Shown: positions 53,132 to 60,424 of the stretch, piece by piece | Layout of the letters: every line of letters begins with the position of its first letter | How positions within the stretch are numbered: the stretch's first letter is position 1 | Sequence record: OL956808.1 | Length of the DNA stretch: 64,000 nucleotides | Direction: 5' to 3' (one strand) | Origin: Escherichia phage vB_EcoM-S1P5QW | Notes under the pieces: generated by a model | Told to the model about the DNA's origin: nothing | Database searches by the model: none | What the model saw: only the letters and a program-made list of their open reading frames with translations | Made by a program: the position numbers and the translations under genes

Positions 53132-53136
53132 TTTTA

Positions 53137-53165
53137 GGGAGAGCCAAGGCTCTCCCTTTTTATTT
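53137..53165 (+). terminator. rho-independent terminator after gene 52 region
   Basis: GGGAGAGCC-AA-GGCTCTCCC then TTTTTATTTT. Confidence 0.7.
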
Positions 53166-53186: not shown

Positions 53187-53216
53187 GTTTACAACCAAAG
53201 CATACTGTGGTACTAT
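53187..53216 (+). promoter_or_regulatory. T4-type early promoter upstream of motA
   Basis: GTTTAC-N18-TACTAT. Confidence 0.6.
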
Positions 53217-53257: not shown

Positions 53258-53893
53258 ATGTCTAAAGTAACTTACATCATCAAAGCTTCTAACGATGTTC
53301 TGAATGAAAAAACTGCTGTGATTTTAATTACCATTGCTAAGAAAGATTTCATTACAGCTGCAGAAGTTCGTGAGGTGCATCCAGATTTAGGTAATGCAGT
53401 AGTTAATAGTAATATTGGGGTATTGATTAAAAAAGGCCTGGTGGAGAAATCTGGTGATGGATTAATCATTACTGGTGAAGCTCAGGATATTATTTCAAAC
53501 GCGGCAACTTTATACGCACAGGAAAATGCTCCGGAACTACTGAAAAAACGAGCAACTCGTAAAGCTCGCGAGATTACTTCTGATATGGAAGAAGATAAAG
53601 ATTTCATGTTAAAACTTTTAGATGAAAATGGATTTGTTCTTAAAAAAGTTGAAACTTATCGTAGTAACTATCTCGCTATTTTAGAAAAACGCACTCACGG
53701 AATTCGTAATTTTGAAATTAACAACAATGGAAACATGCGAATTTTTGGATACAAAATGATGGAACATCATATTCAGAAATTTACTGACATCGGTATGTCA
53801 TGCAAAATCGCTAAAAATGGTAATGTGTATCTTGACATTAAACGCTCGGCAGAAAACATTGAAGCTGTAATCACTGTAGCATCTGAACTGTGA
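53258..53893 (+). CDS. motA: middle-transcription activator MotA
   Basis: 211 aa, recognised as T4 MotA. Confidence 0.85.
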   Translation: MSKVTYIIKASNDVLNEKTAVILITIAKKDFITAAEVREVHPDLGNAVVNSNIGVLIKKGLVEKSGDGLIITGEAQDIISNAATLYAQENAPELLKKRATRKAREITSDMEEDKDFMLKLLDENGFVLKKVETYRSNYLAILEKRTHGIRNFEINNNGNMRIFGYKMMEHHIQKFTDIGMSCKIAKNGNVYLDIKRSAENIEAVITVASEL

Positions 53894-53903
53894 GGAATAA
53901 ATA

Positions 53904-54233
53904 ATGAACAAGTTAGAAATTGTTAATGAACTTCGTCGTTGCGCAGAACCTACTCAAGAGGGGTGGGACATCTGGTATCATGGAGCTTATCTTGGAACTA
54001 TCGTAAAGATTAAGACTGGTAAATACATGATTATTCGTGAAAGTAAAGATGCTCCAGTAGGTATTCGCAATAATTTTATGGCAGCGATAAGTTCATTTAC
54101 GGATGCAGCTTACGAAATTTACCTTGCTGATTATAAAGAATTCCAGGAATCTCAACCAGTTATTCGCTCAATTGGTGTTAACAAAGCTCAACAGAAAACT
54201 TTGTGGCAACGTATTAAAGGATGGTTTAAATGA
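53904..54233 (+). CDS. hypothetical protein
   Basis: 109-aa ORF, GAGGAA SD. Confidence 0.45.
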
Positions 54234-54691
54234 ATCCATTTATTAATCGTTTAAAAATGCTGAATGTTCCTTTATATCGTGAGACTCCAGAAAGTCTTGT
54301 TGAAAAATTTAAAGCACACGGTTATAAATGCACAGAAGAAGATATTCTTGCAGAAGTTCCGGAAATCTGTTGGCAGTCTGCATACTGGGATGAAAACCAA
54401 AAGTACCAACGACGAATTGTCTGTGCAGCCAACCGTTTTAAATTAAAAGATGGACGAATTCTTGTTATTCCGGGTGCTCGTCATTATTCTAAAGATATGG
54501 CAGCAGTTTTAGATGTAGTTAAACCTCAATTAGTTACTCAACAAGTTTGTGATGATGACCAAGGGTTTATTGACCAATATAGTAATTATTGGACACGTGA
54601 AGAAGCAATGATTATTGCAACTTACGCTGGACAAGTACGTATTGAACGCGGTGGTAGTGAAAAAGAACTTTACTCTGAGGACCTTTACTAA
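54230..54691 (+). CDS. hypothetical protein
   Basis: 153-aa ORF, ATGA overlap. Confidence 0.45.
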
Positions 54692-54987
54692 TGAATATTA
54701 AAAAGTTTCAAATTGATGGAATTATGAATCAAATCCAGGCATTGGAATATGCCAATAAAATGATGTCAACCAAATGGGGAATTTATGCCAATGAACCGGC
54801 ATTTCAGTTCTGTAATATGGAATTCACTAAAAAGCTCGTAGGAAAAGATTATGTATGTCCATTTAGTTCCCCAATAAATGGAATGCTAAAGCCTGCTTTA
54901 CGCGATCTTTATATTGCGATGAACGAAGAGATGATAAAAGAACTAAAACGTCAACTGAAGGTGATTCAATTTGGCCAGGGAAATTAA
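54691..54987 (+). CDS. hypothetical protein
   Basis: 98-aa ORF, GAGGA SD. Confidence 0.4.
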   Translation: MNIKKFQIDGIMNQIQALEYANKMMSTKWGIYANEPAFQFCNMEFTKKLVGKDYVCPFSSPINGMLKPALRDLYIAMNEEMIKELKRQLKVIQFGQGN

Positions 54988-55189
54988 TTCAAAATCTGAT
55001 TATTTTAATTCTCTCAATGATAAAGATAAAAATCTAATACGGCATTTTATTGTTGAGATGGGATATACCGATACACGTGATTTAAGAGAACATATATTTG
55101 AATGTGGTGTAGCTAAAAAGTTTTCATTCACATGCAAATGTTTGAGAGAGGTAATTCAGCACTATGAACAATTTAGTCGCAAAACATAA
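54971..55189 (+). CDS. hypothetical protein (doubtful start)
   Basis: track ORF starts at TTG; first in-frame ATG is far inside. Confidence 0.25.
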   Translation: MAREINSKSDYFNSLNDKDKNLIRHFIVEMGYTDTRDLREHIFECGVAKKFSFTCKCLREVIQHYEQFSRKT

Positions 55190-55272
55190 TTTTAATAAAG
55201 CTTCTGTTCATAAGGATAAGAAGAAAGCGTTTAAAGAATCTAATCGCAAACAGAAACATAAGGGGAAGGTCT

Positions 55273-55551
55273 ATGATTATTGATTCTCAATCCGTGGTTC
55301 AATACACAATCAAAATTGATATTCTAGAAAAGCTATATAAGTTTCTACCAAATTTATACCATTCAATTGTCAATGAATTAGTTGAAGAACTACATCTCGA
55401 GAATAATGATTTCTTGGTTGGAACTTATAAAGACCTCTCAAAAGTAGGATATTTTTACGTAATTCCAGCTCCAGGAAAAAGTATTGATGATGTATTAAAA
55501 ACTATAATGATTTACGTCCATGATTACGAAATTGAAGATTATTTCGAATGA
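55273..55551 (+). CDS. hypothetical acidic protein (possibly Arn-like)
   Basis: 92 aa, net acidic, AAGGGGAAGG SD, located just upstream of asiA. Confidence 0.35.
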   Translation: MIIDSQSVVQYTIKIDILEKLYKFLPNLYHSIVNELVEELHLENNDFLVGTYKDLSKVGYFYVIPAPGKSIDDVLKTIMIYVHDYEIEDYFE

Positions 55552-55712
55552 GTCATAATCTTGAAAAGGTAATCGAGCACAATGTAGCTCAGGAACGTAA
55601 GTCGTTCAAGGAATTCGTAGAAAAAATTTTTGAAGAAAATAACACAGACCAGTTTACAAATCAAGCGTCTGATGATATTATAATAAAGTCAACTAATTGA
55701 GTGGTATAGTTA

Positions 55713-55985
55713 ATGAATAAAAACATTGATACAGTTCGTGAAATTATTACTGTTGCGTCTATTTTGATTAAATTTTCCAGAGAAGATATTGTTGAGAATC
55801 GTGCTAATTTTATTGCATTTCTGAATGAGATTGGAGTAACGCATGAAGGTAGAAAATTAAATCAGAATTCATTCCGTAAAATTGTTTCTGAATTAACTCA
55901 AGAAGATAAGAAAACCCTCATCGACGAATTCAACGAGGGTTTTGAGGGTGTATATCGATATCTAGAGATGTATACGAACAAATAA
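55713..55985 (+). CDS. asiA: anti-sigma70 factor AsiA
   Basis: 90 aa, recognised as T4 AsiA. Confidence 0.8.
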   Translation: MNKNIDTVREIITVASILIKFSREDIVENRANFIAFLNEIGVTHEGRKLNQNSFRKIVSELTQEDKKTLIDEFNEGFEGVYRYLEMYTNK

Positions 55986-57241: not shown

Positions 57242-60200
57242 TTATGCTAAACGAACAATATAGTTAAAAGCAATGTTTTTAACCGTGTTTTCTGTATTAC
57301 CTGTACTATTTACAGTGATAGTATGACCATGCGAGCCAATTGCTACCGTGTGGGTATGAGCACCGATACCTACAGTATGGGTATGAGCACCAATACCAAC
57401 AGTATGCGCGTGAGCGCCTGCGCTTGCAGCAGTACCAGATATAGAGTGCGAATGTGCCCCAGAAGAAGAAGTTCCAAGCGTATTACCACCACCGGCGGAT
57501 CCTCTTATAGAACCAGTACCAGGAGAGTTGTTACTTCCCGCATAAAGAGCGCTTGTGTGGCTGTGCGCACCGGCGGTGTTTGTGGAACCGCTCAAACTAT
57601 GCGTATGAGCACCAGTATTATTACTGGTCTTAGTACCATAATCAAAGCTTGAAGTCGTTTTGCTACCGTAATCAAAACTAGAAGTGGTCTTAGTACCCAA
57701 ATCTGTGCTTGATGCACTTGCACTATGGCTATGTGACTTAACACCGTCTGCTTCTGTACTTAATACAGCGCGCCCAGATGGTTTACCCTTGATAGTTTGA
57801 CCACGCATATCAGGCAGAGCGCCAGAAGGATACACCGCAGCTAACTTAGGATACAAGCCAGTATCAAATGTTTGGCCTTCCATTATGGCATAACCTTCAG
57901 GAGGTGTATCAGTAGGCCAAGGAATCGGAGCACCAATTGGATAACTCGATACAATATCGGTTTTAAGTGATTCAATTGTACTATTTAAGTTGGCAAAATT
58001 ACCAGAACCACCAGTAATGTTACCGTCTGTACCTAAATAAACTGAACCCCCAGCAGAAATGCGCTTAGGAGATATAAAATCACCAGAACGTGTAAATTCC
58101 CAGCCTAAATCTTTTATAACTGCGCCTGTTGAACTTCCGTCTCCACCTTCATGATAATGAACTCTAAAGTTACCACCATTAATTAAAGTGCCTAACGAAT
58201 AACAGCTGTTACCTTGAACATAACGTTGTTTTAAAATAGGAACGTAAGTACTTGTATCTGTGCGATTAATATTCATATAGAACGGAGCACGAACGTTTTC
58301 ATTATTTTGTGAAGCAAAAGACCCTGCACCAGCCGGACGTACTGTATCAGTGCATTCAGCATCAATATAAGCTGCTTGTCCTAATTGCATACGGTAATTA
58401 GGAGAAATGCGGCTATGACTAGTAACAACAACAAGTTTACTGTCATTGTCCACAGTAATCATATTACCGCCAGCGCCATCATCGCCTAACGTAACAGAAT
58501 GGCGCATTTTTACCATACCATTATTAAGACTAATACTTAGCGGGCGGAGATTACTTATTCCACCACTTTCACCGGCATCTTTAGGAGTCGGGATAATATG
58601 TAATGCTGTTTCTGAGCGACGGAAAATAGCACCGTATTCGGCATTCCAAATTCTTAATGCATCTGCCGTTCCACCGAATTTAGCCTGACCATTTACAGAT
58701 AATCCATTATTTGCAACTAAACTTGATTCAGTAACAATAGAACCAGATGATGTAATACCACCAGAAGTTAATAAACCACCATTAACTCGAAATTGAATAG
58801 GTCCGACGGTAGAACCTGATCCGGGAGCAACTCGTTGAGAATAAAAATGGTAACCTTGTCCATCTGATACTTCAAAAACTGTTTCACGAGCACGATCGCC
58901 AGATGCATTAAAGGCATTACCCCATGCTTTGATAGATAGATAACTTTTATTCTGACCTGGGCGAGTACCGCCGGCCCACAATATAGTTTTAGTGCCATCT
59001 GTTGCTGTAGGAGCGTCAAGTTGAATACCGTCGGGTCTAGCACCAGTAAGAACTAATCCGTTATCAAATTTAATTCTTTGTATTGAAGATACTGTTCCGT
59101 CGGCATAAAACTGTACGTTATTAGAGCCAGTTACCAATTTCAAAATACCCGGATTAACTTCCATACCTTCCTGAGTATTAATATTAGTTTTGCCTTTACC
59201 ACGGAAATAGTGGTTCATTTTTCCGCCTGAGTTATAGCCAATATGCGTCTGGCCGTCTCCAGCAGTGTTTTCATCAGCCTGTGTTTGAACTGATAAAAAG
59301 GCAGCGTTCGTTCCAGGCATTGTCCAGGTTCCGCCTTGGTCTTCTGAACGTCCAAATAACGCTTTACGAGTACTACGGAAACTATCAGGAGTAATAGAAG
59401 CAACAGAATTCCAATTACCTACTAAATCATAAACACCCTGCTTAATGTATTTTAAACCAGTGGCAGCATCGCCCAAAGCAATATATCTTTCTCCCATTGG
59501 AGTAGGAGAACCATAGTTGTTAGTATTTTCGTCAGTGGTAATTGTGCCAATAGCAAGTGAACGACGTAATACCATTGCGCCATCATTACGAAGACCCATT
59601 AATTTAGTAGTAAGTGTATTTCCGGTCCACCAAGAAATTTCATCATTTTTACCGGTTTGAGCTGAAGCGATTTCATGGTAAATGGTTCCGCCTGATTTAG
59701 CTCGAACTTTACGAAGATAGTTTATACCATTTTCTTCACCTGTTCCAGGATAAACATATTGAACTAATGATTGCGAATCGTATTGTCCAAATGCTTTTGT
59801 ATCTAAAATAATATTTTTAGTATTAATCTGAGGCGAAGTAATATTTCCGAGAGCTGCAATATTTCCAGATGTAGTTATACTACCTCCTGATACTGCTAAA
59901 CCTCCACCGTCAACAACAAATCCGCCGTCACGTCGAAACGTCCAATATTTCGAATCGCCAGATTCATTGATATAATGAATCTTCAACGAACCTTCAGAAA
60001 CTAAAGTACCTAATGAAAAAGTTCCATCTTTAAAGCGCTGTTTAATTATAGGATTATATTCAGATGTGGAAGTAGCTGAGCTTAAATCTACAAAAATTGG
60101 AGCTTTTGCAGTGTGTTGACCAGACCAAGCCCCACTTCCAGTAGTACGATAATTAAACTCAATATATCCACCGCTTGCTACAATTTGCGGACCAATTAAA

Positions 60201-60424
60201 TTAAATTTTCCAGTCTGTGTATAATCGCCAGTTTGAGTGATATTTCCACTAATATTACCGCCAGCGGTAATGCTTAAATCAATAATATTTCCCGAGTCAT
60301 CTTTAGTAAAAAGAGTACGGTCTTTTAAGTTTATAGCCAATTCACCTTCGGCTAATACTGAAGCAGCAGGACGTTGACCTGCGGTTTTGCTTCTTTTAAA
60401 TTGTATTTGTTTTAAAGTAGCCAT
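57242..60424 (-). CDS. 37: long tail fiber distal subunit gp37 (receptor-binding)
   Basis: 1060 aa; conserved N- and C-termini ([13 protein letters not shown] ... [11 protein letters not shown]); His-box repeats near C-terminus. Confidence 0.95.

Follow-up and report, generated by a model that had tools for sequence, protein, structure and literature searches.

Between the middle-transcription regulator genes motA and asiA, Escherichia phage vB_EcoM-S1P5QW (the accession number in GenBank: OL956808.1) carries a cluster of small genes that is, with very little doubt, the canonical arn operon of Tequatrovirus (T4- and T2-like phages) in the same arrangement as in T4, and the locus is the already known arn operon of T4 and T2. 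The analysis covered a window of 64,000 nucleotides (nt), whose numbering is used throughout. The map of open reading frames (ORFs) places five plus-strand ORFs of 109, 153, 98, 72 and 92 amino acid residues (aa) between motA (53258–53893) and asiA (55713–55985). A preliminary description made from the letters alone had listed the same five, which are indeed present, while it had overlooked asiA.1 (55548–55700) and an ORF of 39 aa (55164–55283). As judged from their homologs in T4-like genera including Mosigvirus, Dhakavirus and many uncultured contigs, and from an excess of substitutions at third codon positions, where the pairwise nucleotide differences are commonest in every gene of the interval, the five ORFs are real genes and not chance frames. 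The minus strand of the interval has short ORFs only, none above 45 aa. The genes are as follows:

53258–53893, plus strand: motA, 211 aa, the left boundary, annotated as motA in T4 and with 5 aa changes relative to T4 MotA
53904–54233, plus strand: arn.4, 109 aa
54230–54691, plus strand: arn.3, 153 aa, a variable N-terminal helical part followed by a core domain (about 95 aa) that is conserved
54691–54987, plus strand: arn.2, 98 aa, with 5 aa changes relative to T4 arn.2, a match to phrog_1844 and a pairing site for the small RNA (sRNA) ArcZ in its 3' end
54971–55189, plus strand: arn.1, 72 aa, TTG start
55164–55283, plus strand: gene for a basic DUF7230 protein of 39 aa, overlapping both arn.1 (at its end) and arn (at its start)
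55273–55551, plus strand: arn, 92 aa, DNA-mimic McrBC inhibitor by its matches to Pfam PF22134 and PDB 3WX4
55548–55700, plus strand: asiA.1, 50 aa, ortholog of T4 asiA.1 with 3 differences and a match to phrog_3762
55713–55985, plus strand: asiA, 90 aa, the right boundary, identical to T4 AsiA

The preliminary description had regarded the interval as expanded relative to T4, on the view that only one or two genes (motA.1, arn) sit there in that phage. The T4 record (NC_000866) contradicts this view, since six genes, asiA.1, arn, arn.1, arn.2, arn.3 and arn.4, are annotated between asiA and motA, and the arn–motA interval of T4 (161163–162833 in that record) is like the present one in genes, order, strand, overlaps and spacing. 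Positions 53258–55985 align with T4 at 96.4% nucleotide identity (98 of 2728 columns differ) with a single indel of 3 base pairs (bp), which gives Arn.3 one extra Gly, and each of the five proteins has 1–9 residues changed relative to the equivalent T4 frame. From motA to asiA the distance is 1823 bp, against 1820 bp in T4 and 1819 bp in T2, and other T4-like genera have values between 1347 and 2723 bp. Because the five genes are all found in T4, ordered and spaced alike, the interval contains no extra cargo, and the spacing equal to that of T4 and T2 together with the T4 gene content means that the interval is not expanded. The idea that newly acquired anti-restriction or anti-defence ORFs enlarged it can draw on the variable gene content of this neighbourhood, such as an extra ORF of 112 aa in a Dhakavirus and a slot between the DUF7230 gene and asiA of 219 to 1107 bp. 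But T4 itself has all five ORFs and asiA.1, the alignment and spacing are as just described, G+C content and skew are flat throughout the interval, and the same block occurs in about 480 phage genomes (482 phage records at ≥80% coverage by blastn with the interval alone), so that we give this idea practically no credence. Of the earlier notion of variable counter-defence cargo at this site, what stands is that across the family the slot from the DUF7230 gene to asiA is variable, whereas the window has the standard Tequatrovirus content of this slot. All five ORFs have syntenic orthologs in T4, among which a function is known for Arn alone.

Moreover, megablast found 827 matching phage records, 477 of them at ≥80% query coverage, with Escherichia phage TH09 at the top (98.2%), and no reference genome, whether T4, T2 or other, was found to be without one of these genes at this position. 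The flanking genes on the ORF map (52, motA.1, motA, asiA, t, 38 and 37) are those of a T4-like phage, reversed relative to the T4 map. The cluster lies between motA and asiA and on the same strand as both, flanked by t, 38 and 37 at one end and by gene 52 at the other, in agreement with the T4 annotation. Scans of the interval for Rfam families, tRNA genes and repeats gave nothing relevant.

The protein of 92 aa is identified by its sequence as Arn, the McrBC-inhibiting DNA mimic: it matched the Pfam family DM_Arn (PF22134) with 177.2 bits (cut-off 26, E 7.8e-53), and aligned over residues 1–92 with chain A of PDB 3WX4 (E 7e-55), 88 of 92 residues being identical. The earlier suggestion of an Arn-like acidic protein was thus borne out. 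The isoelectric point (pI) is 4.55, with 16 D+E against 7 K+R, i.e. the protein is net negative as a DNA mimic should be, and in length, acidity and genomic position it resembles the known Arn. According to Ho et al. (2014), as cited in PMC12871103, Arn is a DNA mimic inhibiting McrBC that also binds H-NS. The allele in the window differs from that of T4 at four residues (F13I, I49V, A58V and N70S). T2 Arn has I13, S70 and F80, and the window Arn combines the T2-like I13 and S70 with the T4-like Ile80. It has been reported that the N70S change in T4 Arn abolishes inhibition of the PUA-Cal-HAD defence system (PMC12871103). Since the window Arn has S70, it may fail to inhibit PUA-Cal-HAD, so that this system may not be blocked during infection by this phage.

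In many other genera, an acidic protein of 86–99 aa occupies the arn slot, for example:

locus L002, 3165–3464: acidic arn-slot protein
locus L011, 4860–5141: acidic arn-slot protein
locus L021, 4571–4831: acidic arn-slot protein
locus L023, 4994–5272: acidic arn-slot protein
locus L025, 4779–5057: acidic arn-slot protein
locus L031, 4952–5230: acidic arn-slot protein
locus L039, 4632–4895: acidic arn-slot protein

The Pfam DM_Arn family had no match among these proteins of other genera; profile–profile comparison with Arn using hhalign aligned them over the full length with a probability of 95.6% (E 1.3e-8), by which they are divergent homologs of Arn. Arn is missing altogether from some Dhakavirus-like loci. 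As for the other genes, arn.4, arn.3 and the DUF7230 gene were present in the syntenic T4-like loci sampled throughout, and some loci lack arn.2 and arn.1 or have them in another place. In the Dhakavirus locus L003, the extra ORF of 112 aa (2130–2468) stands between arn.4 and arn.3, and in loci L019 and L021 arn.1 stands upstream of arn.3; the extra ORF and the moved arn.1 indicate that the cluster has been rearranged in some lineages.

The gap between arn.1 and arn is 100% identical to T4, and positions 55190–55272 are left unannotated in both the T4 and T2 records. It is filled by the ORF of 39 aa (55164–55283), whose product (MNNLVAKHNFNKASVHKDKKKAFKESNRKQKHKGKVYDY) has a pI of 10.2. This protein matched Pfam DUF7230 (PF23876) with 44.9 bits (cut-off 27), and all 10 homologs tested also scored above this threshold. 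The gene was found in 1,196 phage records. Nearly all of the syntenic loci sampled have it intact, even those from which arn.1 or arn is missing. Its nucleotide differences at the three codon positions number 3512/3385/11018, a 3.2-fold third-position excess that is the strongest in the interval. By these sequence measures, the DUF7230 gene is the seventh gene of the interval and its most strongly conserved one, under the strongest purifying selection. All the DUF7230 relatives found belong to T4-like phages and are unnamed, and the PDB profile search for this protein gave nothing significant. Separately, ArfA was tried as an identity for the 39-aa protein and rejected (hhalign probability 0.3% over 5 aligned columns against a sequence taken as E. 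coli ArfA, with no PDB match).

The annotation of arn.1 also differs from what the alignments indicate. Both T4 and T2 annotate arn.1 as 43 aa, from an ATG equivalent to position 55058. Other genera, in at least six lineages with ATG or GTG as start codons, have conserved the 29 residues upstream of this ATG (xSKSDYFNSLNxxxKxxIxxFIxE), and Met30, the T4-annotated start, is Leu in most other genera, so that the short form would be unable to start there. The differences at the three codon positions are 2323/1871/3493 for residues 2–29 and 2895/1945/4361 for residues 30–65, i.e. the extension has a third-position bias like that of the rest of arn.1, and a good Shine-Dalgarno sequence, GAAGGTGA, lies at 54957–54964, 6 nt upstream of the TTG. 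On this comparative evidence, arn.1 is 72 aa and not 43 aa in length. It could be argued instead that some of these ORFs are not genes, the TTG-initiated ORF of 72 aa being an artefact, the true arn.1 a gene of 43 aa behind a spacer of 70 nt, and the ORF of 39 aa a chance frame. Such a view agrees with the T4 and T2 records, which give the 43-aa arn.1 and leave 55190–55272 blank, and with a preprint on T2 that treats 54988–55057 as intergenic with an RNase E site, and TTG starts are uncommon. However, the conservation of the extension at the protein level, its codon-position bias and its Shine-Dalgarno sequence all speak against it, as do the DUF7230 score, the intact state at syntenic loci and the third-position excess of the 39-aa ORF, and we therefore regard it as very improbable.

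In addition, arn.4 is 109 aa long as judged from its homologs, which are all 107–119 aa. Its start codon is ATG in 43 of 44 loci (53904–53906 in the window) and ATA in T4 (locus L001) only, and because of this ATA just 68 aa are annotated in T4. The T2 record (PV648363, locus L083, 733–1038) has a 2-bp deletion at codon 27 of arn.4, whereas the window gene is intact. From the ATA in T4 and the deletion in T2, both classic laboratory phages appear to carry a damaged arn.4.

The length of arn.1 bears on a recent model of the operon's regulation. In the T2 preprint (June 2026, bioRxiv 10.64898/2026.06.19.733364), arn.4-arn.3-arn.2-arn.1-arn is described as one transcript, the functions of arn.1 to arn.4 are called unknown, and the host sRNA ArcZ is reported to pair with arn.2 at +285 to +294, shielding the message against RNase E, whose site is a GCAUU motif 11 nt before the annotated arn.1 ATG and in an intergenic region of 70 nt corresponding to window positions 54988–55057. 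Both elements are identical in the window:

54975–54984, plus strand: ArcZ pairing site CCAGGGAAAT, +285 to +294 of arn.2, fully complementary to AUUUCCCUGG of E. coli ArcZ
55042–55046, plus strand: GCATT, the RNase E motif of the T2 preprint, 11 nt upstream of the ATG at 55058

The sequence CCAGGGAAAT occurs once in the 64-kb window, at the position reported for T2, and the ArcZ sequence used was verified (100% identical in 5,417 of 5,426 E. coli genomes; Rfam RF00081 at 120.8 bits). If arn.1 is 72 aa, the intergenic region of 70 nt in the preprint is N-terminal coding sequence of arn.1 here, in T2 and in T4, the GCATT falls within the arn.1 frame in the codons for R-H-F, and the ArcZ site is at +5 to +14 of arn.1. 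Thus, the published ArcZ/RNase E model may in fact describe control of arn.1 translation, with ArcZ pairing on its start.

The genes of the interval are tightly packed. ATGA junctions are found at arn.4/arn.3 and arn/asiA.1, a TAATG junction at arn.3/arn.2, and overlaps of 17 nt between arn.2 and arn.1, 26 nt between arn.1 and the 39-aa ORF and 11 nt between the 39-aa ORF and arn. Neither a MotA-box promoter nor a terminator was found from motA to asiA.1, and the transcription signals recognised lie around this segment:

53136–53157, plus strand: terminator-like hairpin 3' of motA.1, a 9-bp G+C-rich stem followed by a T run
53188–53216, plus strand: sigma-70-type promoter-like site 5' of motA, TTTACA-17-TACTAT with a TG extension
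55653–55681, plus strand: sigma-70-type promoter-like site 5' of asiA, TTTACA-17-TATTAT with TG, 10 of 12 matches

The site 5' of motA is probably the source of the transcripts that enter the arn genes by read-through. From the absence of consensus signals within the cluster and from the T2 preprint, it would follow that the genes are expressed from the motA promoter as one early/middle polycistronic message and are translationally coupled.

Apart from Arn and the DUF7230 protein, scans of all ORFs with Pfam, NCBIfam and PHROGs gave no names, and the four genes from arn.4 to arn.1 have no relative in Pfam, NCBIfam or PDB, which for arn.1 includes the profile searches. These family scans bear out the earlier statement that no motif can be recognised in the ORFs of 153 and 109 aa. 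In Arn.3, the N-terminal part is variable and the C-terminal core of about 95 aa is conserved, with the invariant residues R61, A66, A67, R84, H85, Q111, G112, F113, D115, R123, A126 and Q135 and the motifs QGFxD, REEA and GQ, and it ends in a near-invariant LxSEDLY. Among 1.84 billion cluster representatives, 3,892 proteins matched an Arn.3 profile at E≤1e-3 and 1,523 did so at E≤1e-10. Most of the proteins with this core are stand-alone, 90–130 aa in length, and ten longer proteins with a C-terminal Arn.3 domain have no Pfam domain. The PDB profile search with Arn.3 gave nothing significant. With Foldseek against BFVD, the relatives of the Arn.3 model are uncharacterised phage proteins from many hosts; the model also matched segments of three BFVD proteins named "large polyvalent protein associated domain-containing" (E 8e-4 to 1.3e-2). 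Neither the 44 Arn.3 homologs nor the 10 fused relatives had a match to any Pfam LPD family. The domains of phage large polyvalent proteins were reportedly described by Iyer and colleagues in 2017; Arn.3 is small and stand-alone by contrast. So many invariant polar residues and such a wide range of hosts would point to a domain that binds a ligand or acts as an enzyme rather than to a strain-specific protein inhibitor. As a tentative proposal, in which we have low confidence, the target bound or modified by the core would be a small ligand resembling a nucleotide or a universally conserved component of the host, and not a strain-specific defence protein. More doubtful still is the wider proposal that the Arn.3 core is a widespread uncharacterised phage effector domain acting on a nucleotide-derived molecule or a universal host target, with the DUF7230 protein, invariably found alongside it, as a second unrecognised core host-takeover factor of T4-like phages.

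Taken as the canonical arn operon, the cluster would work as follows. Arn would block the attack of McrBC on DNA with non-glucosylated hydroxymethylcytosine, and the other proteins of the interval would be dispensable accessory factors for host takeover or counter-defence. As in T2, pairing of ArcZ with the 3' end of arn.2 would protect the message from RNase E and so secure the production of Arn. In a CRISPRi-ART study on T4, arn, arn.1 to arn.4 and asiA.1 were all scored as "Not Fit", i.e. no fitness requirement in the laboratory host (PMC11879866, supplementary file 15); the main texts of the HIDEN-SEQ and CRISPRi-ART studies make no mention of these genes, and it is the CRISPRi-ART supplement that has them. 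Several points weigh against parts of this picture. The structure and profile searches were uninformative on what arn.4, arn.3, arn.2, arn.1, the DUF7230 gene and asiA.1 do. The proposed single transcript derives from absent consensus signals and from the T2 preprint. Furthermore, the RNAduplex energy of the ArcZ site is unexceptional, 5 of 638 windows of the 64 kb being as low, and an ArcZ site on the start region of arn.1 would normally predict repression of arn.1, which would be awkward for a purely protective role.

The division between host takeover and counter-defence was also considered for the proteins other than Arn. It is possible, though in our view short of probable, that Arn.1 to Arn.4 and the DUF7230 protein serve host takeover by an action on nucleic acids, on transcription or on the ribosome, and are not concerned with counter-defence. 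Consistent with this, the genes sit between those of MotA and AsiA, both regulators of middle transcription, the proteins are basic (pI 9.2 for Arn.4, 9.2 for Arn.2, 8.5 for Arn.1 and 10.2 for the DUF7230 protein), and the H-NS binding cited above for Arn points in the same direction. Moreover, the cluster belongs to the core of every T4-like genus sampled, unlike anti-defence cargo, which is usually patchy.

Outside the cluster, the product of gene 37 (1060 aa, 57242–60424, minus strand) ends with repeated His-rich GAHTHT/GSHGHT motifs, which would resemble the His boxes that bind metal at the tip of the T4 long tail fibre.

For the T4-like phages as a family, these results amount to corrections of the T4 and T2 annotation: arn.1 would be a gene of 72 aa, arn.4 a gene of 109 aa whose start is damaged in T4, and the DUF7230 gene is missing from the records. 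These corrections bear on the design and interpretation of guide RNAs, reporters and the elements of the region regarded as "intergenic", including the 2026 ArcZ/RNase E model. In addition, S70 in Arn provides an allele-level prediction on the inhibition of PUA-Cal-HAD, and Arn.3 and the DUF7230 protein, of which Arn.3 is the more widespread, are conserved proteins that deserve functional study.

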